Source: Patescibacteria group bacterium
GTDB taxonomy: Bacteria > Patescibacteriota > Microgenomatia > UBA8517
Assembly (NCBI GenBank): GCA_026416845.1
Contig: JAOAEL010000003.1
Span: 78,047 to 142,046 of the forward strand
DNA length: 64,000 bases
Reading direction: 5' to 3'
The translations under genes were made by a program, and so were the position numbers. Position 1 is the stretch's first letter; the number at the start of each line of letters is the position of its first letter. Below, in pieces: positions 17,339 to 34,655 of this stretch. The notes under the pieces were generated by a model. It worked only from the letters and a program-made list of their open reading frames with translations, was not told the DNA's origin and did not search any database.

Positions 17339-18640
17339 TTATTGGATTTTTACCTTTTTTGTTTTGCCTTCGAAATCGATTATATAAATATTATTTTCAA
17401 CTATTCCTTGAATATATGTGACTCCGCTATTTTCCGTACCAGAAATTTTTATTCTTGGCGAAGTTTGTCCTGATCTAGTATCTAAGTAAAAGTATTCCGT
17501 TCCTGTTGTTGTATTTTCCATAAATATAATTATATTATTATCTTTCCATATGCCAATTAAACCTGTTTTTGGGAATTTAATTTGTTGAGATTTATTTGTT
17601 TCAATATCATAAATTGTAATGCCATTTGATGAAATTGAACAAACCTTTTTTCTATCTGGAGAGACTGAAAAACTATTTTGTTTAGATTCAAATAAAATTT
17701 GATTTTTATCAAGATCTATTACTTGGACTTCTCCACTATCTAGGGCTTCTCCTATTTCAACTAAAGCAACTATTGAATCTTTTAAAGCAAATACTTGGTT
17801 TGCTTCAGTCATCAAAATCTGAGAAGGTTTAAAATCATCCAAATTTGATTTGTATAATATCGACATTTTTGTTTGAGGCGTATAACTGCCAATTACATAC
17901 AAATTTTCATTATCTTCTGATATAGAGATAGATGAAATAGGAGTCAGCAGTTCGCTTCCTTTTAGTTTTTTTACTGCTCCAGTATTTATATTTATTAAAA
18001 CAATTTGATCATTTTGTTCAATTTTTCTTTCTAAAACTGCAATATAATTTTTGCCCTTTTGGTATGAAAAAACACTTTTAGGGTACAGAACTGTGACAAA
18101 TTTTTCGTCTGTAACTTTTACTAAACTTTGTTCTCTTGGATCGATGGCAAGAAAAGAACTTTCTGATATTGGTGTTATTTTTATATATTGACTTTCGTTT
18201 ATTGATACTGGCACTGATGAAACTTCTTTTGCAACTTCTTGTATTTTTTCAAGAGATATTTCTATTTCAGTGTCTTTATATAGATCGATAATTTCTTTTT
18301 TGTCTATGTAGTTTTGTTCTGAAATTAATATTTCGTATTTTCCTTTTGGAAGGTACAATTTAACTTTTCCTGATCCTTTTTCTTCGTTATTTAAGTATAT
18401 TTTTGCTGTAGAAGGGTCTGTTTTTACACTTAGGTAGAATTGTTTAATTTCACTTTTTTTTAAATTATTTGTTTTTTCTTGATTTAGATAAATTCCATAA
18501 ACTGCTAGGAGAAAAATTGTTACAAAAAAAACAATAAACAATATTTTATGTTTAAAAATAAAATTTGTAGCTTTTGATAAAAAATCCTGATTTTGGTACA
18601 TTGCTTTTTTATTATATATACAATTATTATATATATACAA
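17339..18640 (-). CDS. Hypothetical membrane-anchored protein with a PEGA-like domain and a beta-propeller-like (TolB/WD40-like) C-terminal region
   Basis: N-terminal TM (ILFIVFFVTIFLLAVYGIYL). PEGA-like KIYLNNEEKGSGKVKLYLPKGKYEILISEQNYIDKKEIIDL. Repeated beta-strand-rich segments. Last gene of the minus-strand VirB4 operon. Confidence 0.45.
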   Translation of the reverse strand: MYIYNNCIYNKKAMYQNQDFLSKATNFIFKHKILFIVFFVTIFLLAVYGIYLNQEKTNNLKKSEIKQFYLSVKTDPSTAKIYLNNEEKGSGKVKLYLPKGKYEILISEQNYIDKKEIIDLYKDTEIEISLEKIQEVAKEVSSVPVSINESQYIKITPISESSFLAIDPREQSLVKVTDEKFVTVLYPKSVFSYQKGKNYIAVLERKIEQNDQIVLININTGAVKKLKGSELLTPISSISISEDNENLYVIGSYTPQTKMSILYKSNLDDFKPSQILMTEANQVFALKDSIVALVEIGEALDSGEVQVIDLDKNQILFESKQNSFSVSPDRKKVCSISSNGITIYDIETNKSQQIKFPKTGLIGIWKDNNIIIFMENTTTGTEYFYLDTRSGQTSPRIKISGTENSGVTYIQGIVENNIYIIDFEGKTKKVKIQ

Positions 18641-18671
18641 TTTTAATTTTAAGTTATTATAACTTTAACTA

Positions 18672-21638
18672 CTACCTACATTCTGCATATGCAATTCTAG
18701 ATCCTGGACATTGATTTTCTCTTCCTTCACACCTGTTGTATCTTTCTATATTATTATTGAAATCTGTGGATGGGCAAGTATCCCCGTCTCCACCCACAAA
18801 ACATGCTCCTCTTGCCGGATTTCTATTTATGGCAAAATGTAAATGCTCTGGAGAACCGGGTCTGCTAGCAGACCCGGTTCTATCGGTTGTTCCTAATATT
18901 TGACCTGCTTCTACTCTTTCATTTTCTGAAACAAATATCTCACAAAAGTGAGCATAATAATGGTAAAATCTTCTTCCACTTTGATCTATACTTTCAATTG
19001 CTAGGTTTTTGCCACCTATTGGGTCTATTCTACGATTTCGATTATTTCCAACAACCCAGATTACTCTTCCAGATGCATAAGCAACAACTGCAGCTCTAGC
19101 TGGAGGACTTCTATCTGATGAAACCCCGCTTGGAAATATATCAGTTGATCTGAATCCATCCCAATGAACACACGCATTTCCACTCATTCCTTCTGTTGTT
19201 CCTGAAAATGGGGCTACAGGAAAAGCGTATCTTTGATTATTTGACATCAATACCCCTGTAGGAGTTGGGATTGGGTTAGGAATTGGTCTTATTTCATTAC
19301 AATTATCGACTTGTGGAGCGTTGCCTACAGAAATACAATGGGTATCTGAAACGACTTGTGTCTGATTTGTATTTTCTATTGTTGCTGAAAGCCTTATTGT
19401 GTCACAGACTAAAGAATTAGAATGACTTCTATTAATTCGTATTGAATAATTTGTGACATATTGTCCTATTCCTATTTCACTTGGAATATTTGGAGATCCA
19501 AGAATTTGAGCAGGTTGGTTTTGCGATACGGGTCCAGAATTAGATTGTCTATTAGGTAGTATGGTATAAGTATTAACAAAAGAAACGTTCGTTAAGTTTT
19601 GATTAGTAATTATTGTTATTGTATAGATTACTTCTACTTCTTCTGTTGGATTTTGTATTCTGCTTACTGGTGAACTTTTATCAATTATTATGTTTTCGGA
19701 TTGATTTATTCCTTGCCTTCTTAAAATTAGATCATTTGCTTTGGGAACAACCAATCCACTTGTGTTTATTACAAGCAAAACAAATGCTACAAAAATTATT
19801 ATACCTGCTAATGTTATAGAAAAGAGTATAAGAATTTGTGTAATTAAAATTATGGATAAAGAAGTAAATATTCCTATTAAAATGGAGATTGTTTTGCCTA
19901 GAATTTTGCCTATACCCTTAATATATTTGACAGGATCTTTTAAGAAGTTTATTATTTCGGGCAATATTGTTGCTATTAAACCTAAACCGCCTGTTGCTAA
20001 AGCTGAACCTGCTTTTACCAATAAGCTGGCTAATCCTTTGGCAATTGTGGACTTTGCTAGTTGAAATGTTGTATTTCTTGCCAAAGCGGCAGCTCCTCTT
20101 TTGATTATGTTTCCTCCTATTTTTTGGGTTGCGCTTGGTAGAAGTCCCTTTATTTTTCTTGCTTTTTCGTAAAAATTTCTTAATTGAGGGATTGTATTTA
20201 GTATTTCTTGATTCTTTTCAAATAGTTCTATTATATCTGATGCTCTTACTGATAAAACAGATTGTGTTAGTTGACTGTCTGTAGGTATTTGATAGTTTTT
20301 ACTTTCGCCAAATTTTTCTAAAGCTTTTCTTGTTATTTCATAGCTTCCCGTGTAGGCGTCGATAGAGGGGTCGAGAGGCAAATTATTTTTTGAATCAAAG
20401 AGACCTGATTTTTGTAATTCTTGGTTTATCAAATCTCTTCGCCGAATGGCTTCCTTAATTTTTGGATTTTCTTTTGCTATTTTTTCAGCGGCGCCTGGAT
20501 ATATGCTTGCAAAATATAAAAACTGTTGTGATTCAACGAACTTTTTTATTTTATCATATGTTTCAGTTGGATTTAAATTTAATTGATTTTGTAGTTCTTC
20601 CCCTTGTTCTCCGGTTGAAATTGATTGAACTAAATAATCTGTAGCTTTGTTTATCCTAATTTTTCTATCTTCCAAAAGGAGTTCTGGGGTTATATTTTCT
20701 ATTTTCGTTTTTAAAATGTATGTTGTTGGGGGAATATATTCCGTGTTTGTTGATCCTTTTGATAAGTTTACTTTTCCTGGAAGGTTGTTATCTATCCATC
20801 CTGGGTTATTTATGACAATTTCTGAGTCTTGTTCATTAAATCCGCTTAGTAGTGAGACACGAATTTTGCTATCTTTTTGTTTTTCTTTGTAAACATTTTG
20901 ATTTTTTGATGAAATTTGTTTGACTTCTTTTTCTTTTTCTTCATAATCTTGGGATTCCGAAGCTATTTCTGCCAAGATTTCTATTGCTGTTCTATATTTT
21001 TCTTGCAAAATTTGATCGTATTTACGAAGATCTTTTTCATATTCAGCATCGAGTTGCATTTGTATAGATTCATTTCCTGATGGATCTATTTTTCTAACCG
21101 GTTTTTTAGCTTTTTGAAAAATGATGCTGTATCTTTCATCAGTTGTGTTTGTTAATAACATCGCTTCTGTAATGACTTGATTTGGGTCTAAAAATTGAAG
21201 ATTTTTAATAATATTTGCGGCTATTAAGGCTCTTGAACTCGGAAACTTTGCTATTTTTACCGGTTTAATGTCTTTGCTTAATTTTTGATTTTCATTTTTG
21301 TATTGATAAAAATTTTCTTCTTTTGGAATTTTCTCGCTTTGCTTTTTTTGGATTTGTGTAATTGTTTCCTGTTTTCTAGGAAAATTGTTTCCGTGTATCA
21401 AAATTGTTTGATCGTATATTTTTCTTTTTTCAGGGTTTCTTAATGTATTGTAAGCTTCGGTTATATATTGAGCTGCTTGTAAAGCTTTTTGCTGATTTTC
21501 TGAATCGCTATTAACATGAAGGTCAGGATGGTATTTTTGTATCGCATTTCTGTATGCTTGTTTTATTTCTTCAAAAGTTGCATTTTCTGTAACTCCAAGT
21601 CTTTGATAATAGTTCATTTCCGGAAAGTTGTTGTTCAT
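18672..21638 (-). CDS. J-domain (DnaJ-like) - coiled/low-complexity linker - TM - M23 (LytM) metallopeptidase fusion protein
   Basis: N-terminal J domain with HPD (YYQRLGV..EEIKQAYRNAIQKYHPDLH). Long TM stretch (~aa 580-640). C-terminal M23 motifs (YHYYAHF..., GTTDRTGSASRPGSPEHLHFAI). The C-terminal third is visibly more GC-rich. Confidence 0.7.
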   Translation of the reverse strand: MNNNFPEMNYYQRLGVTENATFEEIKQAYRNAIQKYHPDLHVNSDSENQQKALQAAQYITEAYNTLRNPEKRKIYDQTILIHGNNFPRKQETITQIQKKQSEKIPKEENFYQYKNENQKLSKDIKPVKIAKFPSSRALIAANIIKNLQFLDPNQVITEAMLLTNTTDERYSIIFQKAKKPVRKIDPSGNESIQMQLDAEYEKDLRKYDQILQEKYRTAIEILAEIASESQDYEEKEKEVKQISSKNQNVYKEKQKDSKIRVSLLSGFNEQDSEIVINNPGWIDNNLPGKVNLSKGSTNTEYIPPTTYILKTKIENITPELLLEDRKIRINKATDYLVQSISTGEQGEELQNQLNLNPTETYDKIKKFVESQQFLYFASIYPGAAEKIAKENPKIKEAIRRRDLINQELQKSGLFDSKNNLPLDPSIDAYTGSYEITRKALEKFGESKNYQIPTDSQLTQSVLSVRASDIIELFEKNQEILNTIPQLRNFYEKARKIKGLLPSATQKIGGNIIKRGAAALARNTTFQLAKSTIAKGLASLLVKAGSALATGGLGLIATILPEIINFLKDPVKYIKGIGKILGKTISILIGIFTSLSIILITQILILFSITLAGIIIFVAFVLLVINTSGLVVPKANDLILRRQGINQSENIIIDKSSPVSRIQNPTEEVEVIYTITIITNQNLTNVSFVNTYTILPNRQSNSGPVSQNQPAQILGSPNIPSEIGIGQYVTNYSIRINRSHSNSLVCDTIRLSATIENTNQTQVVSDTHCISVGNAPQVDNCNEIRPIPNPIPTPTGVLMSNNQRYAFPVAPFSGTTEGMSGNACVHWDGFRSTDIFPSGVSSDRSPPARAAVVAYASGRVIWVVGNNRNRRIDPIGGKNLAIESIDQSGRRFYHYYAHFCEIFVSENERVEAGQILGTTDRTGSASRPGSPEHLHFAINRNPARGACFVGGDGDTCPSTDFNNNIERYNRCEGRENQCPGSRIAYAECR

Positions 21639-21787
21639 ATATTTTTGGTTTTTATTTGTACATTATATTGTTTTATTACCGTAATTTAACTTAATTATTT
21701 GCAAAATTTTCATTAGACTGATAATTAAATTATTATTAGATTAATTAAATTATTTGCAAGTGTTAATAAGTAAAAAATTTTTGTTAC

Positions 21788-23674
21788 TCATGTTTTTCTT
21801 TGTAGTAACTCTTGAGGTTTTGTTGTTATTAGTTTATGTTCTTCAGGTGATGCGATTACAGAAATTGGTACATGATTATTGCCTGCAAAAAATATGCCTT
21901 GTCCAATATTACTTCCTAGAAGTAATTGTTTTTCTCCTTGAGACAAATAAAAAACTTGTGTTATTTTATCGATTGCAGCTGGAGATTGTTTAAAAAGTAC
22001 TCTAAGAGCTGCGTTTGTAACTACTGCTTTTCCTATATCTTGGCTTAAAAAATCTTCAACATCTTGTGTAATTGTTGTAATTCCCAAGTAATATTTTCTT
22101 GCTCGTTTTACAATTGACCAGAGAAATTGTGCGCTATCTGAATAACGCATCATATGCCATGCTTCATCTACTATTAGAATACGAGGCTTTAGTTCTTTTT
22201 TTACTCTAGTCCATATATAATCAAGAATTATAAACATTGCTATGGGTCTTAATTGATCTTGTAACTCTCGAACTGAAAAAACGGTAAATGGGTTTGTAAT
22301 ATCAAATGTTGTTTGTTGATCGAATATTCCTACATAACTGCCTTTTACAAATTTTTCTATTCTAGCTGCCAAATCTAGTGCTTCAGTAGTTTCCATACCT
22401 ATTAAAATTTTATATAGATCTTCAATTAAAGGTGGTTCTTTAGTTTGTGTTTTTGGATCTTGAGTAATTCCTTTAGATTTATAGGTGGCTACTAAGGCTC
22501 GATCTAAAATAGCTTCTTGATATGGACTTATTTCTCCCATAATTATTTTAAATAATGAATGTAGTGAAAGTATTTTTAAACCTAGTTGATTTTCTCCTTC
22601 TTCGTTTATGTAAGATAAATCAAATGGATTTATTTTTACAGCTGAATTAAATGAGAAAGAAAGGTACTGTCCGCCAACTGCATCGCAAAGTGTTTTGTAT
22701 TCGTTTTCTGGATCAATTATTATTATGTTTGTTCCTAACATTAAACTTCTTAGTGCTTCGAGTTTGACAAAATAACTTTTACCGCCACCTGAGCTTCCAA
22801 ATATGACCATGTTTGAATTTTCTAATGAAAATCTATCAAAGACTATAAAAGATCCATTTTGAGAATTGATGCCATACAAAACACCTTTGTCGTGTGAAAG
22901 CTCGGCTGAGGTTAAAGGAAACATTGTTGCGAGTGAAGTAGTATCCATATTTCTTGTTATAGATAATCGATCCATTCCAAATGGCATTGTTGATAAAAAT
23001 CCATTTTCCATATCTAAAGTTGCGTGTTTTGCTGTTACCAAAACTGAACCGAGTGTTGATTCTATTTGTTTTGTTATTTGATTTAATTGTTCAAGACTTG
23101 CTGCTCTAACTGTTACATAAAATGAAAACTCATAAAAATGTTCTATTCCTTTAACCAATTCTTGTTGAAGCCTTCTTGCGTCTTCCAATTTAGCTTCAGT
23201 TGATGGATTTAATATCTTGCCTCTTTCCAAATCTGTTGCGATTTCTGCTTCCATTTCAGCTATTTTGCGCATTAAATCATTTAAAACATCTTTTCCTTTT
23301 ACAGGATAAATAAAAAATGAAATATCTAAAGAGCTATTAAAGTTAACTAATTGTTCTAACCAGCCCGGAGAAACAAATCTAGGATATCCAGATATAAACA
23401 AGGATCTTAAATATACATCGCCTATTTTTATGTGGTCTAAATCTATTTCTATTTCATTTGTTGCAATTACATTTACAAGTGGAACTCTTTCTTCAAACAC
23501 CGCTTTAGCAATATTGGGGTATTGTGGTTTTTCTCCATGTATTAAAATTTCTTCTTGATTTTCATGATTTTCATTTTTTGATTCCTTTTTTTTTATTACA
23601 GTTTCTGTTATGGGATCAATTGTAAAGTTTATTTCTTCTTTTTTTTGAAAAGGTAAAAAACTTATATTTTTCAT
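21788..23674 (-). CDS. VirB4/TrbE/TraC-like type IV secretion ATPase (central and C-terminal ATPase portion)
   Basis: Walker A FGSSGGGKSYFVK, Walker B ILIVDEAWHMM, and the conserved VirB4 block YLGITTITQDVEDF. Confidence 0.8.
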   Translation of the reverse strand: MKNISFLPFQKKEEINFTIDPITETVIKKKESKNENHENQEEILIHGEKPQYPNIAKAVFEERVPLVNVIATNEIEIDLDHIKIGDVYLRSLFISGYPRFVSPGWLEQLVNFNSSLDISFFIYPVKGKDVLNDLMRKIAEMEAEIATDLERGKILNPSTEAKLEDARRLQQELVKGIEHFYEFSFYVTVRAASLEQLNQITKQIESTLGSVLVTAKHATLDMENGFLSTMPFGMDRLSITRNMDTTSLATMFPLTSAELSHDKGVLYGINSQNGSFIVFDRFSLENSNMVIFGSSGGGKSYFVKLEALRSLMLGTNIIIIDPENEYKTLCDAVGGQYLSFSFNSAVKINPFDLSYINEEGENQLGLKILSLHSLFKIIMGEISPYQEAILDRALVATYKSKGITQDPKTQTKEPPLIEDLYKILIGMETTEALDLAARIEKFVKGSYVGIFDQQTTFDITNPFTVFSVRELQDQLRPIAMFIILDYIWTRVKKELKPRILIVDEAWHMMRYSDSAQFLWSIVKRARKYYLGITTITQDVEDFLSQDIGKAVVTNAALRVLFKQSPAAIDKITQVFYLSQGEKQLLLGSNIGQGIFFAGNNHVPISVIASPEEHKLITTKPQELLQRKT

Positions 23675-23676
23675 AA

Positions 23677-24357
23677 TTAGAAATCATCTTCCGCGGTTTT
23701 AACTGGCACTTCTGGATTGTATACATTATAAAAAAGTTTCAGTAATTCTTCATCGTTAAGTTGTTTTAGTTTGATTGACAACCTGTTTGCCTGTCTTATT
23801 AGGTGATCTCTTTTGGGGTGGAGTGAAATCTTTGCTTTTCTAACAACATAAGATTTAGGATACGGAATTAAGGCTACACCTTTTTTTTGATTAGGGGAAA
23901 ACATGCTTAGTGCAAAAGAATTTTTTGCAAGACCAAGTTCGTATGGATAAAATGGAATGGTGATATAAAATTTTTTGCTCAATATGTTTCGTTTTTTTAT
24001 TGCTTCGTTTATGAAGTTTTTGTAGTCCATCATAATTTGTGCCAATTTTTCGTTTTTGATTTCTTTTTGTTTTTCTTCCAAATATTTCATGTAGCTAGAA
24101 ATATCTTTTTTTTGAGAACTTACTGTAATTTGTATTGGAAATGAAAGCGAGTTTAAAAGTCCAGCATAGGATACTATTACAGCTTCTTGTTCGTTTTCTG
24201 ATAGTAGTCCAAAATTAAGGGAAGTGGACTCCATTACTATTGCAGCTCCTCCATTTTTGTAAAATGCTATTCCATCTGTTATGTCTATAACAGGTACAAG
24301 TTCTTGAGAAGCGACTTTTAACGGTTTGTCAGGTGTAAATATAAAAGGAATTTTCAT
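23677..24357 (-). CDS. VirB4 N-terminal domain-like protein (separate ORF; stop-2 nt-ATG junction with the ATPase ORF)
   Basis: LVPVIDITDGIAFYKNGGAAIVMESTSLNFGLLSENEQEAVIVSYAGLLNSL resembles the N-terminal membrane-proximal domain of VirB4/TrbE. 226 + 628 aa together make a full-size VirB4. Confidence 0.5.
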   Translation of the reverse strand: MKIPFIFTPDKPLKVASQELVPVIDITDGIAFYKNGGAAIVMESTSLNFGLLSENEQEAVIVSYAGLLNSLSFPIQITVSSQKKDISSYMKYLEEKQKEIKNEKLAQIMMDYKNFINEAIKKRNILSKKFYITIPFYPYELGLAKNSFALSMFSPNQKKGVALIPYPKSYVVRKAKISLHPKRDHLIRQANRLSIKLKQLNDEELLKLFYNVYNPEVPVKTAEDDF

Positions 24358-24373: not shown

Positions 24374-25387
24374 TTAAATAGGGCTTATGATTAATGGTTT
24401 TAGAATCTCGCCTTTCAAAATAATTGTTATTGGTTCGAATTTATAATTTTCTTTTTCTGTCAAGATTTGATACTGACCATTTGCAAGAGGTGTTATAATT
24501 GCGAAGTGTCCTAAACTATTGCTTTTTAAAGCTCTAACTGGCAACCCATTTTCATCTCTAATTTCTATAATTGCGTTTTCGATTATTTTTCCGTCTTTTG
24601 TTATAACTTGACCTACAACAGTATTGGGTTGTGTCGGAAAAGCAGGGTGTGTTTCTGTTGAAAATTTTGCCGTTTGAGTTTGTTGGAAAATTATTTCTCC
24701 TAATATTGGTTTAATTTCTGAGTTTTGCGTGAATCTATCTATTTGTTTTGGTTCATAAACATAAGAGTTTTGATCTTTTACTTGATTTATTATACGTACA
24801 TTTTGTGTTTGTGGAATAGAAATTTCAGTTTTATTTACACCAGATAAATCTTTTTGAATTGCTTCTAAAGGATTTTCGTTTATGTGCTTGTCAACTTTAT
24901 TTAAAAATGCTGCCTCTTTTTTTTCTAGCACAGCTTGCCAAGAATAGCTTGTTTTTTGTTTGATTTCTTGATTGTTTGTTTGAATTTCTAAATCATTACT
25001 TGAAGTGTTTTGAGTAATTTCTTGTTCTTTGTTTTGGAATTGTTGTAATTCTGCTTGATAGGATGGAAGTTCGTCTTGAAAATAATACGGTTTTTGGTAA
25101 TTAGCTTGCCATTCGTAGAGAGTTGGTGAATAAATTGATTTAAAAAAAAGAATTATCCAACGTGAAAGTGGTCTGTCTTCAACAGGGAAAAAAGCTAAAG
25201 CAATACCTAATAAAAAGGCAAACAGCATTAATGGCCATTTGATATAGGATGGAAGTCCCGATGAATACAAAATCAATGCAACCAACGTGCCACCAGCAAC
25301 TTGGAAGAATTGTTTTATTGTCATATCTCCTACCAATTTGAATTGGTATGAAGATATTTGTTGGGGAATTGCATGTTCTTGGTCCAT
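24374..25387 (-). CDS. Membrane protein. N-terminal two-TM VirB3-like segment plus C-terminal carboxypeptidase-regulatory/Cna-B-like beta-sandwich.
   Basis: Two hydrophobic helices (GGTLVALILYSSGLP; PLMLFAFLLGIALAFFPV) placed directly upstream of VirB4, as for VirB3/TrbD. C-terminal GQVITKDGKIIENAIIEIRDENGLPV..GHFAIITPLANGQYQILTEKENYKFEP fold motif. Confidence 0.4.
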   Translation of the reverse strand: MDQEHAIPQQISSYQFKLVGDMTIKQFFQVAGGTLVALILYSSGLPSYIKWPLMLFAFLLGIALAFFPVEDRPLSRWIILFFKSIYSPTLYEWQANYQKPYYFQDELPSYQAELQQFQNKEQEITQNTSSNDLEIQTNNQEIKQKTSYSWQAVLEKKEAAFLNKVDKHINENPLEAIQKDLSGVNKTEISIPQTQNVRIINQVKDQNSYVYEPKQIDRFTQNSEIKPILGEIIFQQTQTAKFSTETHPAFPTQPNTVVGQVITKDGKIIENAIIEIRDENGLPVRALKSNSLGHFAIITPLANGQYQILTEKENYKFEPITIILKGEILKPLIISPI

Positions 25388-25608
25388 AGTAATTAGTTTG
25401 TTTAAGTTAAGTTATAAGTTAATAGAATTTTTTACATTTATTTTGAATTTTTTAATTTAAAAGTTATAATTGTACAAGAAAAATTTAATTTAGGCTAATT
25501 TGTGATAGAGTCTTAATCTAGATTTATATATAGTATTTTATATAATATAATTTTTAAAGTGGTTTAATAATTTTAAATAATTTAATAACTCTAGTTTAAA
25601 TAGTGTTT

Positions 25609-27993
25609 ATGGATAATGAAAGTAACAAAAATTTACCGCAATATGATCGTTGGTCCTTTGATGAACTTTTGGGTATGGTAGAGAACAATCCGTATAACGA
25701 AGAGTGCAAGCGGGAATTTGAAAAAAGAAAAGAAATTTTAAGCAATGACAATCGTTTAGTTCAAAAAATTTTAGAAGAATTTTATTCTCTAATAAGAAGT
25801 GGTGAACTTTTTCCAAACTTTAAGGAAATAGAGGGTCGAATACTTTCAGAGTTTCCGAAGTTTGATTCTGATAAGTATAAAGGAATGATTGCTGACACAG
25901 TTAAATCTGTTTTTGAAGAATTTAATTTTAGAAGAAAAATAGGAACTAGTTTTCAAAAATTTGAAAGAGATAAGCTAAATGAAAAACAGAGAAAAACTTT
26001 TGAAAATATTTTATCTCATCGATATGTAAATGTAACTATAGATTGGACTATTGTAGATTTAGATTTAATAGTTTATGGTAGTGATCGAGAAAATATAGCT
26101 AGAGAAGGGTATCAGCAAGTAATAAATTTGCTTTTGCAAATTATTCAAGACAAGAAACGAAAAGATGACGATAGAATTAAAGCCGGTGATGCAATTCGAT
26201 CAATTTTCAAAGAATTGGGTAGAGAATTAGGGCTAGAATGGGTTGGCAGTTTTTTAGATACACTAGAAAGCATAATTAATGATCCAAATTTCAAATCTAA
26301 GAATGATTTAATCAAAAGCTTAAAAGCATTTATTGACATTATGGAATATAGTGTTTATCCGCATAATGGCTGTTTAAAAATTGAAACAGTTGAAAAATTG
26401 CTACACAAATATCTCAGTGTTAGACAAAAATATGGAGGAATTATAAATGCTTTGTTATCAGGTTTAATTCGGTACGCTGAAGTTATGACAAAAGAAGAAA
26501 AAGATAAAAATGAAGAACTTGATGACATTAAAAAGTTTGAGATTTTGGTTAATCCAAAGTACTTGGAATTTTTTGACAGAATTGAATCTGATGATCAAAA
26601 AAGAGCGGAACAAATAATTAGTTTTGCCGGAAAAGAAAAGGAAAAGCAAGTTGACAAAGAAAAACCACAAGTTGAGGAATCTTTGCATATAGAAATTTTT
26701 AGTTTGTTGTCAAAAATTTTAGATTCAGATATCCCTATAGTCCCAAGGCAAAGTTTTGAATTACCAGGTTTAAATTCTGGTTGGGTTCAAAAAACTTTAT
26801 TTCAGGAAATTATTAGTTTAAATGAAAAAAATAAAGATGAAAATTTCAGAAAATTTGTAGAATCCGTTTTGTCAATTGTTGATTCTTACTCTGTGTTAAA
26901 AATGTGTTTAGAATCTTCTGGTAATGATTTAACAATTTTTGGACAGCGTGTCAGAATGTGTTACCTAACTGAAGAATTAAAGGAATATCTTGTTACTCCA
27001 GATAAAATACTTTGTGCTTATTCTGATCATAGATTAGTTGTGCCTTTCGCTTTGGAATTGCTAAAGCGTGCTAGCACTGACAATGGTTTAGATGGGTTAG
27101 GAAGATTGAACGCAAGACAACCAGGAGAGAGCAATGCTCAGTTTGAAGCCAGAATAAAAAATATAAAAGATAGAATTCTTTTGGAGCTAAAGAATGAGTG
27201 TGAAAATAAATTAATTGCTGGTTTAAGTTTAAAAATTGCGGAGAAAATTGCTAAGATTACATTTTTAGAATTTTTTTGGGATAATCAGTTTTTACTTGGA
27301 AAAATATCGAAAATGATGAATTTTAAAGAATATAGAGAGAGATTAAAGGATAGCGGTGATGTTGGTCCGAAGGATACTATTGAGATAATTCCAACTTTAT
27401 TGTCTCCTTTTAATAAGTATGAGAGAATTGAAAATGGGGGAGAAGATTTTGATATAAAAACTGTTCAAGACATTGAACGTTTATATTTTGGTAGTAAGAA
27501 AGAATCTTTGGATTTATCCGAAGATTTTAAAAATTCTGGTAGATACTCTTGGCTCGATTATTGTTGTGTTGTTATTCCAAAATCTGCCAAAGCTTTTGAT
27601 CGACTTTTAAATACTAATCCGCCACAAACGCTAGAAGAGGCTGAAGCTATAGCAACTGAATTAAATAGCGCTGATCCTAAAGGACGTTTCCGTTTGCTTG
27701 TTATATATATGTTGGGAATAATTCGCACAAATGATGCAAATGAAAAATTTGATCCTCGTAAGTTTCGATCTTTTTTTTATCAATACAGTTTAAAAAAAAC
27801 AATTTTAGGACGATTTTTGCCAAAATGGTTAATTAATATTTTTGACACTAGAGGTAAAAGAACTGTGGAGTACATAACCGAAGAACAAGAAGAATGGCTT
27901 TATTATAAAACCAGTGGAATTGGAAATTTTTTTGAAAAATTTGAAAAATCTGTCAATTTACCTCCGATAAAAAACAAGAACAAAGAAAATTGA
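25609..27993 (+). CDS. Hypothetical K/E-rich soluble protein (796 aa by the track from GTG 25603; first ATG at 25609)
   Basis: Long uninterrupted ORF on the opposite strand, embedded in the T4SS-like locus. No recognisable motif. Confidence 0.4.
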   Translation: MDNESNKNLPQYDRWSFDELLGMVENNPYNEECKREFEKRKEILSNDNRLVQKILEEFYSLIRSGELFPNFKEIEGRILSEFPKFDSDKYKGMIADTVKSVFEEFNFRRKIGTSFQKFERDKLNEKQRKTFENILSHRYVNVTIDWTIVDLDLIVYGSDRENIAREGYQQVINLLLQIIQDKKRKDDDRIKAGDAIRSIFKELGRELGLEWVGSFLDTLESIINDPNFKSKNDLIKSLKAFIDIMEYSVYPHNGCLKIETVEKLLHKYLSVRQKYGGIINALLSGLIRYAEVMTKEEKDKNEELDDIKKFEILVNPKYLEFFDRIESDDQKRAEQIISFAGKEKEKQVDKEKPQVEESLHIEIFSLLSKILDSDIPIVPRQSFELPGLNSGWVQKTLFQEIISLNEKNKDENFRKFVESVLSIVDSYSVLKMCLESSGNDLTIFGQRVRMCYLTEELKEYLVTPDKILCAYSDHRLVVPFALELLKRASTDNGLDGLGRLNARQPGESNAQFEARIKNIKDRILLELKNECENKLIAGLSLKIAEKIAKITFLEFFWDNQFLLGKISKMMNFKEYRERLKDSGDVGPKDTIEIIPTLLSPFNKYERIENGGEDFDIKTVQDIERLYFGSKKESLDLSEDFKNSGRYSWLDYCCVVIPKSAKAFDRLLNTNPPQTLEEAEAIATELNSADPKGRFRLLVIYMLGIIRTNDANEKFDPRKFRSFFYQYSLKKTILGRFLPKWLINIFDTRGKRTVEYITEEQEEWLYYKTSGIGNFFEKFEKSVNLPPIKNKNKEN

Positions 27994-28003
27994 AAATTGA
28001 ATT

Positions 28004-29728
28004 TTAATTGTTTACCACCAATCTGCTTTTAAGCATTTTTTTGCCTGTTGAATGAGCCGCTTTGATAGCTTCAGCAAATCTGAATTTACTTCTGTCTTTA
28101 ATTGATTCAACGCCATAACTTACAAGCCCTCTTCCAAAACCAGTACCATATTGTCCTATAGCATCAGATGCCATACCATAACCAGCAATAGATTGTCCTA
28201 TTGCACTTCCATAAGCAAAAGGTTGACTAGATATTAAAGACTGAATAAATTCTACTACTTTTGGTGTCATTGCAACGCATGCATAGCTAGCAAAAAGCCA
28301 TAAAAGCGAGATTTGTTCTGATCCAAAAGTCATTGGAGGAGCCCACCCTGAAATTGCGCCTTCATTTCTAAACAGACTACCATTAACACCAAATCCAAAA
28401 AATCCTATCATAAGTGCATTGGGATTTGAGTTATTGAAAACTGGATTTAGGAAATTAAGAAGATCTCGCGAAAATGAATTATCTACAAAAAATGCTCCTG
28501 ATAAAAATATATAAGACATCATAAACAAAACTCCTACAGTAGGATAAACAGCCAAGTTTTGAATGATACTTGAAATCCATTTTCTGAATCCACCAAAACC
28601 TGGATAAACTGAGCCTATAAGTATTTGAAATGGCCCTAAAATAACAAGAAGCAATAAATTTGCGAAAGATTTTATTAATATCCATGATACTTTGAAAAAT
28701 ATAAAGAGCAGTGAAATGCTCAAAACTATTACTAGCACAACAAGTATTGGCTTAAAAAGACCAATAGATACAGATGTTGATAATATTGAAACAAGGTTTG
28801 CTTCTGGTGTGAACAAAACAAAAGAGTAAGCTGCTACAAAACTTTGGAAATAACCAAGCAAGAAACCAATCAAACCTAAACCTCCTGGACCATTAACAAG
28901 TACTTGATATATAGTTAAAGCTGGATTTTGGTTGTTAGACACAAATATGCCTGTTTGCGTAAATGTAATACTAATAAGGCCAATAATTATATACATTAAA
29001 TCTACCGCAAAACCTGCTATTGCATATGAAAAAGTTATCAAAATAAGAGTCTTAAAAACTGTCCATAAAGAAGATTGGACGGTAACAACTGCTTGCGGAG
29101 ATATTTGCATTCGAAACATTATCATAAAGGATAAAAATATAATGACTAAAACAATCAAAACATAAGTTACATCTCTTGCTGCTTGCCATAGACCTCGAAC
29201 TGGAGATAGCCCTCTAAAACCAGTCCCTTGAGAATCTGCTGCAGATTGCGCATAGACATTTGACAAACCAAATTTTTCAATAGAGTTTCTGATATAACCA
29301 ATACCTGAAACTGGACGATCTTGTGTTGTAGAAAATGCAATTACTTCAGCAGAACTTTTTACTCTTTCGGCTATTGACTTTTCGTTTAATGGAGTAGCAT
29401 CTGATATGGGGGTAAACATTCTAGCATACTCAGTTGCACAACCTGTTACATCAAAAGTTATATTGCAAGCTATTATTCTTTTAGGCAGTGGTATTAATTG
29501 AACTAAGGAATAAAAAATCCATTGGACCTGAGCAGCAGTGTACCTTTCTCCAAATATTTCTTGAGGGTTACTATCTTCATAAACTTTTATAAACCACTGA
29601 GGAAATGTTTGATCATACCAAGGACCCACTAACTGAGCATGAACTACCTTTGCGGATGGCAAAATATACAAAAAAGCAAATAAAATTAGCGGGAAAAAAA
29701 GTGATAAAAAAAACTTTTTGTTAAGCAT
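28004..29728 (-). CDS. Polytopic membrane protein, VirB6/TrbL-like candidate
   Basis: Signal peptide/TM (FFLSLFFPLILFAFLYILP), ~170-aa extracytoplasmic domain, then >=6 TM helices. Location in the VirB4 locus. No catalytic motif. Confidence 0.45.
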   Translation of the reverse strand: MLNKKFFLSLFFPLILFAFLYILPSAKVVHAQLVGPWYDQTFPQWFIKVYEDSNPQEIFGERYTAAQVQWIFYSLVQLIPLPKRIIACNITFDVTGCATEYARMFTPISDATPLNEKSIAERVKSSAEVIAFSTTQDRPVSGIGYIRNSIEKFGLSNVYAQSAADSQGTGFRGLSPVRGLWQAARDVTYVLIVLVIIFLSFMIMFRMQISPQAVVTVQSSLWTVFKTLILITFSYAIAGFAVDLMYIIIGLISITFTQTGIFVSNNQNPALTIYQVLVNGPGGLGLIGFLLGYFQSFVAAYSFVLFTPEANLVSILSTSVSIGLFKPILVVLVIVLSISLLFIFFKVSWILIKSFANLLLLVILGPFQILIGSVYPGFGGFRKWISSIIQNLAVYPTVGVLFMMSYIFLSGAFFVDNSFSRDLLNFLNPVFNNSNPNALMIGFFGFGVNGSLFRNEGAISGWAPPMTFGSEQISLLWLFASYACVAMTPKVVEFIQSLISSQPFAYGSAIGQSIAGYGMASDAIGQYGTGFGRGLVSYGVESIKDRSKFRFAEAIKAAHSTGKKMLKSRLVVNN

Positions 29729-29816: not shown

Positions 29817-32800
29817 CTATCTTTTAATTTTTATTTGATAATATCGTAGTAAATTTTGACCTACAAATTGATCTGGTTCGGACGGAGGGAATTCTTCGAC
29901 TACTCCGTGAATTATTATTTCTTGATTTCTTACACTCGCATCATTATCTGCATTTGCCACAAAGTAATCTGATCTAATACTGTAAATTCTACTCCAATTG
30001 CCAGAAGGATATTTGTATGTGTAATAAATCATTTTATAATCGCCACCGGCCCAAAAAACGTGAATTCCTCCAAGACTGTCCACGCTTATTGATGGATCGC
30101 CCCATACATCTGTTGAATCTGATATTGTTTCTATGTTCCATTCGTTTTGTGAAGATCTAATATCTTTGGATGCTACATACACTCTGGAAAACCTTCTTTC
30201 TTGGCCAATATATCCAATATCTCTAAATGCTACGAAAACTTTTCCTGAAGAATAGGCATGATTTGGATTTGCGTAATCAAACGCTCCTCCTTTGCCTTCC
30301 ACTACCAAAGACTCAAGGTCAAATTGCTTGGTCCTTTCATTAAAATTCAAGAAAAATATGTCGCCTATACTTTTATTTGCTGCTCTTGCCCCTCCATATA
30401 CCAAAGATATTATTCCGTCATTGGAAACAGCTAAATCTGGTTTTTCTCTGCCGTATATTTTGTAAGGGGATGCTCTTCTTGGATCAGACCAACTATTGCC
30501 GTCGTCTGTGGAGTATGAGTACATTACAAAATTTGCGTTTTCATTTGTTGCTTCGTTCCAAACAACAACTGCCAAATCTCCAATTGCTGCCACTCTTGGA
30601 TGATTAATGCTTGGCCTGTTTGTTGCAACAACAATAGGATTTGTTTGTTCTGATATGGAATCAATGTTTGTCAGAGGAGCTTTTTTGAAAAGTATTGTTT
30701 TTGATTCATGAGTCCAAACATAGTAAAGTTTTGAATTTGCGATGTAATTATGTGTAGTTCTATAATCTGCTTGTACTCCATCTCCTTGTCCAACATTTAT
30801 TTGTGATTGTGGAAATCTTTGATCTGAAGATGGTTTGGTTCTCAAAATAGCATTTTTATCATAATTGTATGATAAGTAAGTATGTGTATCATTGGCAGAG
30901 ATTATTGGATTTTTTATGCCTGAAACTATGTTGGTTGATTCTTCTAAGCAAACATTTTCAGATTGTCTAGGTAAATTTGGCAAAATTTCAAACGTAATAT
31001 CTTCAGAAACTTCTTCGGGCATTGTTTGTTCAAACATCCACAAAGCATATATCATATTTGAAAGTAGTTGCTTGGCTGCGGGGCTTGTAACTATGCTTCC
31101 ATCTGTTACACCTCCGCCGTAGTTGGCTCCTTCTGTATTCAGATATATTGCCATTTTTGGATCTTTGCCTAACATAAAGGTAAAAAATTGCATTCTTTTT
31201 GTTGTTGTATTTTCTGAATCCGATTGTCTCCACTCTCTACCACCTTCAAGAATATCCTCCATACTTGCATTTTGTAATTGTCCAAGAAAATCCCTTACTA
31301 AACCTCTGTTTTGGTTAGGATGGGTATAGCTCCAATACCTTGCTCTACTTGATCTGGAGCTATTTTCTACGACTCTTTTTAAAACTTCTTGCAAAGTTTC
31401 ATCTGAACTGCCATAAATTTTTTGAAAGGTTAATTTATACTTTTTTCCTGTTTCTGTTGCCTGAAATCCAGCTACTTGAATAAGAAAATCTTCAGTTCTT
31501 CGGTTTTGATTGTCTACTGGACCTGTATAATAACAGAAATTGCTTATGCTCCATGCACTGTCTGTTCCACCCAAGTTAGATATAGAATTAGAATTTTCGC
31601 CATCGTCGCAATTGTAAAGGTAAGGATCGGGCCAATATGAGTTTCCTGTTTCGTACCAAATCCATGCAGTTGTCAAATACCTTCTGATCCTATCATAGTT
31701 TCTGGATAGCAATTCTCGCTCTGCATTTAACAATTCTGCTGTAGACCTTTTTGCATTTTCATTATTTACAATTTGATTATACAATTGCTGGTATCCTCTT
31801 ATAGTTTGGTTGTAGGTTGCTTCTCTTACCGGATCTGGCAATTTGTAATTTCTTATAATTTGAAGTATTTGCTCCCTTGTTATTTGATTTCCCGGAGGAG
31901 ATGGTTGTCTTGGGCTTGGATTTGGATTTGTGTTATTTTGATCAAGATCTGAACAAGACAAAATTTCTCTTGGTGCTCTTCTGTTTGAAGTTGACGCTGG
32001 GGGTATAAATCTTCCGCCAAATCCTTTTGGTCTCAAGCTGGTTTGTAAACCTTCCAAGAAGTAATGGTATATTCCACCTAAATGAGGGAAATATACATGG
32101 GCACTTGATGGGTCTATTCCACTTCTGAAGTCGCTTAGTCTTATTGTTGTATTTGAAGAGTAAGATGCATAACTTGCCCCCGGCATGTCCCAAAATTGAG
32201 TTATAAAACTGTCTTCGCCTAATTTTGGTAAAATTCTACGTAAAATACTTGTTGGTCCAGCAACTGTTCTTGACCATATAGAGTCTAAAAGAGGGACACG
32301 AGTGTTTACATCGATTGTATTTGGAATAGTATACGAACATGTTGTGCTTATTTCTTCTGGAGGTTCACATCCCCATCCACAAATATAATTCTCTCTACAT
32401 AAATTAAGAGAATTATCAAAACTTCCTTGACAGCTATAATTTGAAGGGGCACATGCTAAAGATCCTGAATTACTACATATTTCTAGAGATTGACAGTTTT
32501 GTTCAAAATGATTTCTGCAAGCATCTGTGGCATTTTCCAGTGGCAAAGGGAATGTACAACTTATTTGAGCTTTGTATGACAATGTTGCTTGAAATCCATC
32601 GGCAAATATTGTGTCTCCAAGTGGTCCATCTCTGTATTCCAAAGCTTGGCAAGCCCCAAAAAAATTGTTTGATATATCGGTATTCCCGCTTAAAAAGACA
32701 TCTCTGAACACATCTTTTTCTAATGCTGGAGCATTTTTGGGTAAGTCGTATGGAACATACATTGATTGCATTATTTCGCTTAATTCTTCGGATTGTTGCA

Positions 32801-34244
32801 AGTGTGGAATGTAAAGATTTGAGGAGAGCCTGTCTCCGGTTAAACTTCTTTCTGTGACTGTCACATTTTCTGGTTGTTCTTGTTCTTGATCAGTTGCTAT
32901 TTGCAAACTATATTCTCCTAATCTGTCTTCTGTTGATGCCATTGGAATATGTTGGAAAAACTCGTCATCTATTGATCTATTTGAAGGATTTTGAATTACG
33001 CTTTGTACTCCTGTTGTAGGATTATCGAAACAAAGAAAAACACCTACTCCTTGCAACCAAGTTGGCACAAGATTGCTTAAAGGTTCTCCTGCCTTAGGAA
33101 ACCTTATTTCACGACAACTTTGACCGCGCCACTCATTTAGATCTCGTACATATTCTGCCCATTCTCTTGTTCCATATTCTTCTTCTTTTGGTGGTATTGC
33201 ATTCCTTCTGGCCCAAAATCCAATTCTTAAGCCAGTTAATTGTGTTATTCCAAAGGTTTGGATTAACGTGTCAAAAATCCGATTACCTGTTGTTATATAA
33301 TTGCAAGGAACTGGAACATTGCCAATTATCATGTTATTAATTCTCATACTTATTATGCATATTATTACTTGGTTATGTCTGGGGGTTGGGTTGTTAAAAG
33401 ATGTTTGATTTTGAGAATTTCTCCCTTGCCCAACTAAGCCTGTTGCTTGTATTTGCCTTTCTCTTGCCAAATGCTGAATTCTTTGTGGAAGCATTTTGTT
33501 TAAAGGTCCAGAATAATCTATGACTTTTCTGAAAGAATCTGGATTTTCGGTAAAAAGTCCTGTTAATGCATTTATTATTCCCATGAAAGGATAGAAATAC
33601 TCAGCGCGATAGGTTACTCCGCCTAAGTACCATGTTAGGTAGTTGTTCATTTTTTGAGCATGATCGATTTCTTCGAAAAGACTGAAAAGATTTGTGTTTC
33701 TTGCGTTTCTTACATTTTGTGTGTTTCCCAAAACTGGCAAATCCAAAGCATCGAGATCGATAGAGATTTGTCTTTCTCTGTTAATATCAAAATTGCAGTT
33801 TTGAGCCAAATTTTCCTCTGTGCATCTTGTTGGGCTTATTTGAGTTGCACCTTGATTGTTTGGTGATAAGATCTGAAATCTTCCTGTTTCAAATTGAAAA
33901 TTTATTTGCACGGTATCTTCCAAAATTATGTCGTTTCCGCAAAAAAGAGCTATTTGCGATTGAGGTGTGTTGTTTGGTAAACAAGGACTTGCCTGATAAG
34001 GTCTCATAGAGTGGAATTCTTCTAACGGGTGACTTGAAAAGAATAGATTTATTGTCGAATTTAAAGGTCTAACTTGGTTGCATGGTACGTTGGGTGTTGG
34101 CATGGCGTTTTGAATTGCGTTTTGGGTTGGTGTGATTGCCGGACTTTGTGCCAAAGTTAGTTTGGTTGATAAAAATAAAAACAAAAAACCATAAAACAAA
34201 TTTGTGAAAAATAAGAAAAAAGCCAAGAATTTTCGAGTGTGCAT
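29817..34244 (-). CDS. Giant secreted Cys-rich surface protein (1475 aa) with a C-terminal BNR/Asp-box repeat
   Basis: N-terminal signal peptide (FLAFFLFFTNLFYGFLFLFLSTKLTLAQSP). Many Cys pairs (CGWGCEPPEE, CSNSGSLACAPSNYSCQGS). One Asp-box match S-x-D-x-G-x-(S/T)-W (TDDGNSWSDP) near the C-terminus. GC above local background. Confidence 0.55.
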   Translation of the reverse strand: MHTRKFLAFFLFFTNLFYGFLFLFLSTKLTLAQSPAITPTQNAIQNAMPTPNVPCNQVRPLNSTINLFFSSHPLEEFHSMRPYQASPCLPNNTPQSQIALFCGNDIILEDTVQINFQFETGRFQILSPNNQGATQISPTRCTEENLAQNCNFDINRERQISIDLDALDLPVLGNTQNVRNARNTNLFSLFEEIDHAQKMNNYLTWYLGGVTYRAEYFYPFMGIINALTGLFTENPDSFRKVIDYSGPLNKMLPQRIQHLARERQIQATGLVGQGRNSQNQTSFNNPTPRHNQVIICIISMRINNMIIGNVPVPCNYITTGNRIFDTLIQTFGITQLTGLRIGFWARRNAIPPKEEEYGTREWAEYVRDLNEWRGQSCREIRFPKAGEPLSNLVPTWLQGVGVFLCFDNPTTGVQSVIQNPSNRSIDDEFFQHIPMASTEDRLGEYSLQIATDQEQEQPENVTVTERSLTGDRLSSNLYIPHLQQSEELSEIMQSMYVPYDLPKNAPALEKDVFRDVFLSGNTDISNNFFGACQALEYRDGPLGDTIFADGFQATLSYKAQISCTFPLPLENATDACRNHFEQNCQSLEICSNSGSLACAPSNYSCQGSFDNSLNLCRENYICGWGCEPPEEISTTCSYTIPNTIDVNTRVPLLDSIWSRTVAGPTSILRRILPKLGEDSFITQFWDMPGASYASYSSNTTIRLSDFRSGIDPSSAHVYFPHLGGIYHYFLEGLQTSLRPKGFGGRFIPPASTSNRRAPREILSCSDLDQNNTNPNPSPRQPSPPGNQITREQILQIIRNYKLPDPVREATYNQTIRGYQQLYNQIVNNENAKRSTAELLNAERELLSRNYDRIRRYLTTAWIWYETGNSYWPDPYLYNCDDGENSNSISNLGGTDSAWSISNFCYYTGPVDNQNRRTEDFLIQVAGFQATETGKKYKLTFQKIYGSSDETLQEVLKRVVENSSRSSRARYWSYTHPNQNRGLVRDFLGQLQNASMEDILEGGREWRQSDSENTTTKRMQFFTFMLGKDPKMAIYLNTEGANYGGGVTDGSIVTSPAAKQLLSNMIYALWMFEQTMPEEVSEDITFEILPNLPRQSENVCLEESTNIVSGIKNPIISANDTHTYLSYNYDKNAILRTKPSSDQRFPQSQINVGQGDGVQADYRTTHNYIANSKLYYVWTHESKTILFKKAPLTNIDSISEQTNPIVVATNRPSINHPRVAAIGDLAVVVWNEATNENANFVMYSYSTDDGNSWSDPRRASPYKIYGREKPDLAVSNDGIISLVYGGARAANKSIGDIFFLNFNERTKQFDLESLVVEGKGGAFDYANPNHAYSSGKVFVAFRDIGYIGQERRFSRVYVASKDIRSSQNEWNIETISDSTDVWGDPSISVDSLGGIHVFWAGGDYKMIYYTYKYPSGNWSRIYSIRSDYFVANADNDASVRNQEIIIHGVVEEFPPSEPDQFVGQNLLRYYQIKIKR

Positions 34245-34268
34245 ATACTAAAAACTTAAATTATCATT

Positions 34269-34655
34269 TTATCTGCTTGGTCCTCCTGGTCTGGTATCTC
34301 TTCTTTGAGTTTCCCATTCAGGGCAAGGATTTATTCCATTATATATTCTAAAGCTTGTGATTGTATTTCCTGCTCCTGTGAATGTTGCGATTAAATTTAT
34401 TATAAAAAACGAAAGCACAATAACTACAAGTCCTCCAATAGCATAAGTTAGAGTGCTTTTTGCCTGCTCGACTTTTTGAGAGTTTCCTTCAGATGTTATG
34501 TATTTAAAGCCTCCTATTATTAGATATATAAAAAGTACAATTCCTGCGAATCCCAAAACGTAGCTTAAAATAGTTCCAAATATGTATTCAAGTTGACAGA
34601 GTTGAGCTGCTTCTCTTGTTTGTGTTTGTGCTTTTACTAAACCTGAAAAAAACAT
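34269..34655 (-). CDS. Small two-helix membrane protein, VirB2/TrbC-type pilin-like candidate
   Basis: 128 aa with two long hydrophobic helices (FGTILSYVLGFAGIVLFIYLIIGGF; IGGLVVIVLSFFIINLIATFTG) separated by a short polar loop. First gene of the operon with the 1475-aa protein and the VirB6-like protein. Confidence 0.4.
   Translation of the reverse strand: MFFSGLVKAQTQTREAAQLCQLEYIFGTILSYVLGFAGIVLFIYLIIGGFKYITSEGNSQKVEQAKSTLTYAIGGLVVIVLSFFIINLIATFTGAGNTITSFRIYNGINPCPEWETQRRDTRPGGPSR

Follow-up and report, generated by a model that had tools for sequence, protein, structure and literature searches.

Two studies describe the systems closest to the locus analysed here, a gene cluster of about 17 kb resembling a type IV secretion system (T4SS) and located beside dnaA and dnaN in a Microgenomatia genome (contig JAOAEL010000003.1). 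In Southlakia epibionticum, Wang et al. 2023 reported an unusual T4SS of the Gram-positive type which has essential pilins and no relaxase or coupling protein, and which is needed for epibiotic growth (PMC10633639). A survey of 3,035 genomes by Quiñonero-Coronel et al. 2025 placed nearly all VirB4 proteins in one Patescibacteria clade nested in MPF-FATA, and found that TrsD, PrgI and PF18895 pilins accompany virB4, that relaxases are rare, and that in Microgenomatia and Paceibacteria the cluster is close to dnaA, dnaN and rnpA (PMC12102498). We consider it very likely that the present locus is a Woesebacteria-like (Microgenomatia) copy of this Patescibacteria-clade T4SS, derived from monoderm (MPF-FATA) conjugation machinery and fixed beside oriC. 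The system had already been described in papers from 2023 to 2025, and the original prediction, which read the locus as a minimal, chromosomally fixed T4SS-like apparatus, was correct in this and amounts to a rediscovery. The window (the whole 64 kb stretch of DNA that we analysed) thus brings no new system; it is a clean Microgenomatia example with three leads, namely a VirB6 candidate, a J-domain/M23 fusion and a slot gene. Most Patescibacteria, the ultrasmall CPR bacteria, have this system in the chromosome next to the replication origin, presumably for life on a host cell and not for DNA conjugation. Apart from the patescibacterial one, no T4SS is, to our knowledge, known to be required for its owner to grow.

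The secretion core and its place beside the origin

The window has ~30% GC, and all locus coordinates below refer to its numbering. The open reading frame (ORF) coordinates and strands in the original prediction were all exact, and the two minus-strand gene strings that it drew (25387->17339 and 34655->28004) fit the gene spacing, with intergenic gaps of 16, 2, 149 and 31 nt in the former and of 24 and 88 nt in the latter. The locus comprises the following genes:

17339..18640, minus strand: membrane-anchored PEGA-domain protein, 433 amino acids (aa), last gene of the VirB4 string (PEGA above gathering score)
18672..21638, minus strand: protein with a J-domain (cytoplasmic), a membrane segment and an M23 peptidase domain (extracellular), 988 aa (DnaJ, Peptidase_M23)
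21788..23674, minus strand: VirB4 ATPase of the MPF-FATA (CD1110) type, 628 aa (NF045971, P-loop_TraG, Walker motifs)
23677..24357, minus strand: TrsD-like protein resembling the extreme VirB4 N-terminus, 226 aa (CD1110 model and TrsD matches)
24374..25387, minus strand: PrgI/VirB3-like membrane protein with a C-terminal Ig-like (carboxypeptidase-regulatory-like) domain, 337 aa (sub-threshold PrgI, CarboxypepD_reg)
25603..27993, plus strand: fast-evolving soluble protein, 796 aa (slot between the PrgI and VirB6-like genes)
28004..29728, minus strand: VirB6-like polytopic membrane protein, 574 aa (fold search, position)
29817..34244, minus strand: secreted or anchored modular protein, 1475 aa (N-terminal hydrophobic anchor or signal)
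34269..34655, minus strand: VirB2-like T4SS pilin with two hydrophobic helices, 128 aa (PF18895, NF045849)

The gene predicted to encode a VirB4 ATPase was confirmed as such. Its product scored 377 bits against the NCBIfam model NF045971 ('CD1110 family'; cut-off 325) and matched Pfam P-loop_TraG at 4.8e-30 and CagE_TrbE_VirB at 7e-4, with Walker A (GSSGGGKS) at residue 293 and Walker B (ILIVDE) at 499. After CD1110 (Clostridioides CTn2), the next-best families were the VirB4 of Mycoplasma integrative conjugative elements (ICEs) and then F-type TraC; the VirB4_plasma model gave 265 bits, under its cut-off of 590. For comparison we used the best 80 of at least 596 confirmed VirB4 relatives (596 of the 600 listed matches were confirmed, and one genome per species was scanned), whose loci are labelled L001, L002 and so on; further relatives include L081, L083 and L084. 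VirB4 of the best 80 loci is 55–76% identical to that of the window, many of these loci being named Woesebacteria, Microgenomates or other Patescibacteria and several having another taxon label or none, and the L081 protein is 91% identical.

The partners expected of such a VirB4 are encoded beside it. The ORF immediately upstream, put forward as a VirB4 N-domain, bears this out weakly, as it matches TrsD at 2.2e-3 and, at 1.4e-8, positions 12–133 of the CD1110 model; it adjoins VirB4 in 74 of the 80 related loci. Upstream of TrsD–VirB4, here and in 71 of the 80, is the gene for the VirB3-like protein with a carboxypeptidase-regulatory-like domain, which matched PrgI at 3.6e-5, its 24.7 bits falling just short of the gathering score of 27, and CarboxypepD_reg at 1.2e-4, likewise sub-threshold. 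Synteny across relatives, proposed as a check, showed PrgI–TrsD–VirB4 to be kept in 71–74 of the 80 loci. The two-helix pilin candidate exceeded the thresholds of both PF18895 (40.6 bits against 26.6) and NF045849 (43.9 against 40); it is the single pilin in the window, and relatives often have arrays of 2–5. NF045849 is the 'Mbov_0395 family pilin-like conjugal transfer protein' of Mycoplasma ICEs, and the window pilin stands above its cut-off. From sequence, the Tenericutes branch of MPF-FATA may thus have VirB2-like pilins; co-option from diderm systems is a possible pilin origin raised by the 2025 survey (PMC12102498).

The neighbourhood is that of a chromosomal origin, as had been claimed: rnpA, yidC, dnaA and dnaN are present together with a cluster of DnaA boxes, and the cumulative GC skew has its minimum here.

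14588-15976, plus strand: dnaA (Pfam Bac_DnaA)
15977..16194, no strand: dnaA–dnaN spacer, likely oriC (clustered DnaA-box-like sites)
16195-17322, plus strand: dnaN (Pfam DNA_pol3_beta)

DnaA-box-like sites in the spacer lie at 15997, 16018 (perfect) and 16098, and the cluster spans 15997–16106. On its left the locus, which begins 17 nt past dnaN, is flanked by rnpA, yidC, dnaA and dnaN; on the right and farther off in the window the genes are of ordinary chromosomal kinds, among them dnaG, rpoD and those for a DNA glycosylase, a TetR regulator, an M48 peptidase and a Na/H exchanger. The GC content of the locus equals that of the remainder of the window, and its ORFs are all long and intact. 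In Woesebacteria-like loci the order is kept as pilin(s), large secreted protein, VirB6-like protein, opposite-strand slot gene, PrgI, TrsD, VirB4, J/M23, dnaN and dnaA, and dnaN/dnaA are found within 10 kb in 59 of the 80 related loci, which agrees with a chromosomally fixed system. If oriC is the dnaA–dnaN spacer, both T4SS gene strings run toward the origin and head-on to the rightward fork, an orientation that is kept in related loci. A scan for promoters and terminators returned the same counts as in shuffled sequence and was uninformative in this AT-rich DNA.

In the window, a Pfam scan of most ORFs of at least 150 aa found no relaxase, VirD4 or integrase, in line with the original prediction, and a type IV coupling protein (T4CP) profile made from proteins of L045, L046, L050 and L074 gave a weak match to VirB4 itself only. 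With the core T4SS set present, the mobility genes absent in the window and the synteny beside dnaN/dnaA conserved, the locus does not look like a classical conjugative element. We regard it as not mobile because housekeeping genes stand on both flanks, the window has no relaxase, T4CP or integrase, and its GC content is the same as in the rest. A CD1110-type VirB4, TrsD-like and PrgI-like proteins, a pilin and an M23 peptidase in a window that has no mobility genes therefore support a T4SS-like, non-conjugative apparatus. The proposed role of such an apparatus in cell–cell or host interaction agrees both with these results and with published accounts (PMC12102498, PMC10633639, PMC12857230).

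A VirB6 candidate and the envelope proteins

The 574-aa protein had been called VirB6-like and polytopic. About 9 hydrophobic segments and a fold search support this, and what is missing is the sequence match: neither the protein nor 38 diverse homologues matched TrbL/VirB6 or any other Pfam family, NCBIfam gave no match for the 574-aa protein, and the family profile found none among PDB sequences. The family has at least 985 homologues, all 'hypothetical', from Patescibacteria metagenome-assembled genomes and metagenomes. An AlphaFold2 model built from a 39-sequence alignment had a mean pLDDT of 74.5 and exceeded 90 in the transmembrane core. When this model was compared with the PDB by Foldseek, the five best matches were TrwI/VirB6 chains of the R388 T4SS (probability 0.87–0.98, E 0.1–0.3), and from the sixth match on the probability was at most 0.16 and mostly below 0.1. 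TrwI was the top match by two methods and DotA was third. Sequence identity to TrwI/VirB6 of plasmid R388 (PDB 7o3v, 8rtd, 8rt9) and to DotA of Legionella Dot/Icm (9ngy) is 7–15%, with thin statistical margins. Unlike these comparators, the 574-aa protein is twice as long, has no TrbL profile match, and bears in its N-terminal extracytoplasmic region the invariant motif of its family, EIFGERYTAAQVQW.

Judged by the modelled fold and by its conserved position between the pilin side and PrgI–TrsD–VirB4, the 574-aa protein is probably VirB6, although this is not proven. The assignment bears on a gap in the 2025 survey, which came across few VirB6 homologues in Microgenomatia and suspected that they had diverged extremely (PMC12102498). 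The fold comparison points to this large unannotated family as the 'missing' VirB6 of Microgenomatia. A bridge alignment to bona fide TrbL was tried and abandoned, the polytopic proteins of other Patescibacteria loci having proved to be EamA or ABC transporters. Separately, a jackhmmer profile of the pilins weakly matched the first transmembrane helix–loop–helix of VirB6-like proteins (residues 185–254 of the window protein; round 2, E 8e-5). A pilin-only MAFFT/hmmbuild profile did not reproduce this resemblance, and we set it aside as not robust and possibly compositional.

The predicted architecture of the 988-aa protein, a J-domain joined through a membrane segment to an M23 peptidase, was upheld (DnaJ 4.7e-17; Peptidase_M23 5.9e-10, 39.7 bits against 28.7). 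HPD is at residue 37, HLH at 932, and two hydrophobic segments lie near 579–620 (579 and 601). Homologues follow VirB4 in L001–L010 and in L081, the identity to the latter being 44%. From its domains, the protein is a candidate for the component that opens the cell wall and for a functional analogue of VirB1; it is not a homologue of VirB1, SLT or CHAP. A J-domain/M23 fusion as the candidate wall-opening component is new here for this lineage; the word DnaJ is absent from the main text of the 2025 survey, as are PEGA and 'hypervariable' (PMC12102498). That a J-domain is fused across the membrane to an M23 peptidase suggests recruitment of Hsp70 to the secretion site.

The last gene of the VirB4 string had been described as encoding a PEGA/beta-propeller protein. 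The PEGA domain is secure (9.1e-9), and the beta-propeller comes down to sub-threshold hints (E ~0.05–0.08). One hydrophobic segment lies at its N-terminus, none of the 80 related loci yielded a homologue at 1e-4, and we take the protein for a lineage-specific accessory whose membership of the T4SS is uncertain.

The 1475-aa protein has an N-terminal anchor or signal and 24 Cys, as expected of the secreted, Cys-rich protein that had been proposed. Twenty of these Cys fall within residues 1–760, and many are invariant across 41 homologues. The Asp-box repeat attributed to its C-terminus is there only in part: a single canonical Asp-box lies at 1245 (STDDGNSW), and the BNR matches are faint (E 0.006–0.065). 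The protein is modular, with a Cys-containing conserved core at ~45–745, a helical module at ~785–1075 and a BNR-like C-terminus at ~1111–1472. The 52 detectable homologues share the core only, with the modules around it shuffled, and some of them bear SLT_3 lysozyme-like or NAGPA phosphodiester-glycosidase domains. The window protein itself matched no Pfam or NCBIfam family, and the conserved core had no fold match in the PDB. We considered whether residues 785–1075 are a divergent SLT_3 lysozyme-like domain and found no support for this: hhalign against the SLT_3 segments of the homologues gave a probability of 0.15%, with just a short resemblance of 'YETG...' to 'RESGG...'. The AlphaFold2 model of this module was poor.

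The slot gene and neighbouring genes

The 796-aa gene was said to sit convergently in the middle of the locus. This holds on one side, where it is tail-to-tail with the VirB6-like gene across a 10-nt gap; on the other, a spacer of 215 nt separates it from the PrgI gene, to which it stands head-to-head. Its product is soluble, with ~33% charged residues, and has no hydrophobic segment, no Walker A/P-loop and no Pfam or NCBIfam match. A word-index search of 5.8 billion proteins returned only the protein itself, and an exhaustive HMMER search of 1.84 billion representatives returned three relatives, of which two could be placed, both in the same slot. The divergence of this gene stands out when whole loci are compared. 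Against L081, VirB4 is 91% identical, TrsD 89%, PrgI 59%, J/M23 44% and the slot protein 28%; against L083, identity falls from 72% for the pilin through 55% for the VirB6-like protein, 52% for the 200-aa neighbour described below and 43% for the large protein to 26% for the slot protein, the last over only one third of its length.

Slot genes are located at 6027-7911 in L081 and 877-3678 in L083, and are also present in L001, L002, L005–L010, L013 and L020. In Woesebacteria-like loci with a VirB4 61–76% identical, the slot always holds an opposite-strand gene of 530–920 aa and similar composition; these showed no BLASTP similarity to the 796-aa protein nor, mostly, to one another. A four-sequence slot profile recovered the slot proteins of L013 and L020 alone from a database of 1608 ORFs (E ~4e-5) and did not grow on iteration, and the remaining slot proteins fall into small separate pairs. 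Among the four slot relatives, only the N-terminal ~110 residues are well conserved. On these similarities the slot proteins are possibly one family that diverges very fast; non-orthologous replacement in the slot is an alternative still to be reckoned with. Around the slot gene we found no significant flanking repeats in the stretch scanned (24800-28600), its GC content is native, and there was no sign of a cassette or recent insertion.

At four related loci, the gene immediately upstream of PrgI instead encodes a soluble VirD4/TrwB-like P-loop ATPase (TrwB_AAD_bind, TraG-D_C, DUF87):

L045 5521-7713, minus strand: VirD4/TrwB-like ATPase
L046 1036-3237, minus strand: VirD4/TrwB-like ATPase
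L050 5713-7899, minus strand: VirD4/TrwB-like ATPase
L074 1476-3830, minus strand: VirD4/TrwB-like ATPase

A coupling-protein-like gene has thus stayed in the cluster of some Microgenomates-type lineages, though not in that of the window lineage. The 796-aa protein is not a degenerate coupling protein by our tests, as it has no Walker A and hhalign gave a probability of 0.13% against the T4CP-like proteins of these four loci.

We tentatively raise the idea, which at present is doubtful, that the slot family supplies the patescibacterial T4SS with its translocated effector, or with the factor that sets host specificity, and diversifies in an arms race against host bacteria. A fixed position, extreme divergence and a divergent promoter region shared with the VirB4 string are features that one would look for in a secreted effector or host-range factor. 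If true, the slot protein would be the first candidate substrate for a patescibacterial T4SS. Diverging far faster than every neighbour, the slot gene is in any case a testable candidate for a substrate or host-range factor.

Beyond the pilin gene lies a further conserved gene that is divergent from the locus:

34761..35363, plus strand: neighbour protein, 200 aa, divergent, conserved (hydrophobic segments at both ends; no Pfam or NCBIfam match)

Its orthologues in L083 and L084 are 52–57% identical and occupy an equivalent position. Further along, a two-gene cassette is duplicated at 35478-36784 (+) and 37938-39084 (+), each copy having a small ORF followed by an ORF of 268–282 aa, and the copies flank a methylpurine-DNA glycosylase gene (37206-37727). 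Both 268–282-aa ORFs are ~60% identical to a single L084 gene and have no family matches. On the other side of the origin, 8000-12500 has unusually low GC (23–27%) and strongly negative GC skew, and contains a 795-aa ORF without a Pfam match (9040-11427, minus strand) that adjoins an RNase H/RVT_3 gene. Two more large ORFs have no Pfam match, one of 466 aa at 54377-55777 (-) and one of 756 aa at 60988-63258 (+).

Mechanism, alternatives and comparison with known systems

Taken as a working machine, the locus suggests the following mechanism. VirB4, docked at the membrane through PrgI and TrsD, would power the extraction of pilin and its polymerisation on a platform of the VirB6-like 574-aa protein, and the product of this assembly would be a channel and short pilus across the monoderm envelope. 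The J-domain/M23 protein would open peptidoglycan from outside, its cytoplasmic J-domain recruiting DnaK to the assembly site, and the 1475-aa secreted protein may act on the cell's own surface or on the wall of the host; among its homologues are ones with lysozyme-like or glycosidase modules. The machine would serve epibiotic host interaction, through protein export to the host cell or exchange of molecules and not conjugation; a recent review speculates that the pilus is a conduit for exchange with the host (PMC12857230). The cytoplasmic 796-aa protein, divergent from the PrgI–VirB4 string, would be the best in-locus candidate for a translocated substrate.

Could the structure serve adhesion only, a VirB2-type pilus or other surface device holding the cell on its host with no substrate translocated? 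The pilin gene is conserved and often amplified to arrays of 2–5 in relatives, it adjoins the gene of a large surface protein whose modules are carbohydrate-active or BNR-like, and there is no coupling protein to recruit substrates. We nevertheless find a device for attachment alone rather unlikely: Patescibacteria already adhere by type IV pili (PMC10633639, PMC12857230), the window has a single pilin, and a conserved full VirB4/VirB3/VirB6 translocon with a wall hydrolase fits a channel. The want of a coupling protein is shared by the effector-secreting T4SSs Ptl and Brucella VirB (PMC12102498).

The original prediction had named DNA uptake beside host interaction, and of the two host interaction stands and uptake is the weaker half. 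A DNA-uptake machine would import host or environmental DNA for a nucleotide-auxotrophic cell, as do the archaeal Ced and Helicobacter ComB T4SSs. Patescibacteria are generally without nucleotide synthesis (PMC10633639), DNA export is unlikely in that the window has no relaxase or coupling protein, and VirB4 has distant matches to CedB (NF041017, E 9e-15) and CedD. These matches, however, amount to 54 bits against a cut-off of 700 for CedB and 34 against 600 for CedD, compared with 377 bits for CD1110, and CedA/CedA1/CedA2 or ComB-type partners were not detected. Southlakia needs ComEC and type IV pili to be competent, and deletion of comEC abolishes competence and not viability (PMC12857230). 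Because the comEC deletion is viable and the T4SS is essential, the essential role of the T4SS there is not ComEC-linked DNA uptake (PMC12857230). We judge an uptake machine to be quite improbable.

A degraded or cryptic ICE whose remnant landed near the origin is scarcely credible: VirB4, PrgI and TrsD are indeed homologues of Gram-positive conjugation proteins, and a VirD4/TrwB-like ATPase is encoded just upstream of PrgI in L045, L046, L050 and L074, but the window has no relaxase, coupling protein or integrase, the same locus adjoins dnaN/dnaA in 59 of 80 species-level relatives, its GC is not anomalous, flanking repeats are absent from 24800-28600, its ORFs are long and intact, and the published VirB4 tree indicates vertical, class-specific inheritance (PMC12102498).

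Several points weigh against a host-directed T4SS of the Patescibacteria clade, which we still prefer. The scans for relaxases and coupling proteins covered 64 kb of a 151-kb contig, so such genes may lie elsewhere in the genome. Placement of VirB4 in its clade follows from best-scoring profiles and nearest relatives, and both PrgI and the Ig-like domain score just below the Pfam thresholds. We identified no VirB8-like component, there being no Pfam or NCBIfam sequence match in the locus; this component was rarely found in the published survey as well (PMC12102498). The canonical HxxxD motif was not seen in the M23 domain, and its catalytic activity is not assured. Functional evidence comes entirely from one Saccharimonadia species and none of it from a Microgenomatia T4SS, and the effector role of the 796-aa protein is drawn purely from position and evolutionary rate.

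What this locus adds in detail is the VirB6 candidate family, the modular 1475-aa protein and the extremely fast-diverging 796-aa gene. Set beside the MPF-FATA conjugative T4SSs (CTn2 CD1110, pCF10 PrgI/PrgJ, pGO1 TrsD/TrsE), it has the same kind of VirB4, above the CD1110-family cut-off, with PrgI-like and TrsD-like partners, and it shares with the Mycoplasma ICEs (Mbov_0395/0397) a pilin above the Mbov_0395 family cut-off. Unlike both, it is chromosomal and vertically conserved, and it lacks an oriT and integration functions as well as a relaxase and a coupling protein.

It has the repertoire of the 2025 survey, with a VirB4 of the MPF-FATA type, TrsD, PrgI and a PF18895 pilin encoded near virB4, no relaxase, and dnaA, dnaN and rnpA close by. 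The survey found VirB3 mostly away from virB4 in Microgenomatia (PMC12102498), whereas PrgI-like genes are adjacent here in 71 of the 80 loci; and it called VirB6 'scarce' in Microgenomatia, whereas we propose, by fold, a VirB6-like family there with at least 985 members.

The closest described counterpart is the T4SS of Southlakia epibionticum ML1 (SEML1_0006-0019; Saccharimonadia; PMC10633639). It has six pilins compared with one here, and in the present locus the VirB6-like protein is undetectable by sequence profiles, the hydrolase is a J-domain/M23 fusion, and an NTF2-like (VirB8-like) gene was not recognised. The present locus also includes the 796-aa gene, which is hypervariable, and the modular, secreted 1475-aa protein. 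Both clusters are of the Gram-positive type and yet have VirB2-like pilins, and neither contains a recognisable relaxase or coupling protein. Both lie at the chromosome start near dnaA, and they share the same order: pilin(s), VirB6-like protein (SEML1_0013), PrgI (0010), TrsD-like protein (0009) and VirB4 (0008), followed by wall hydrolases.

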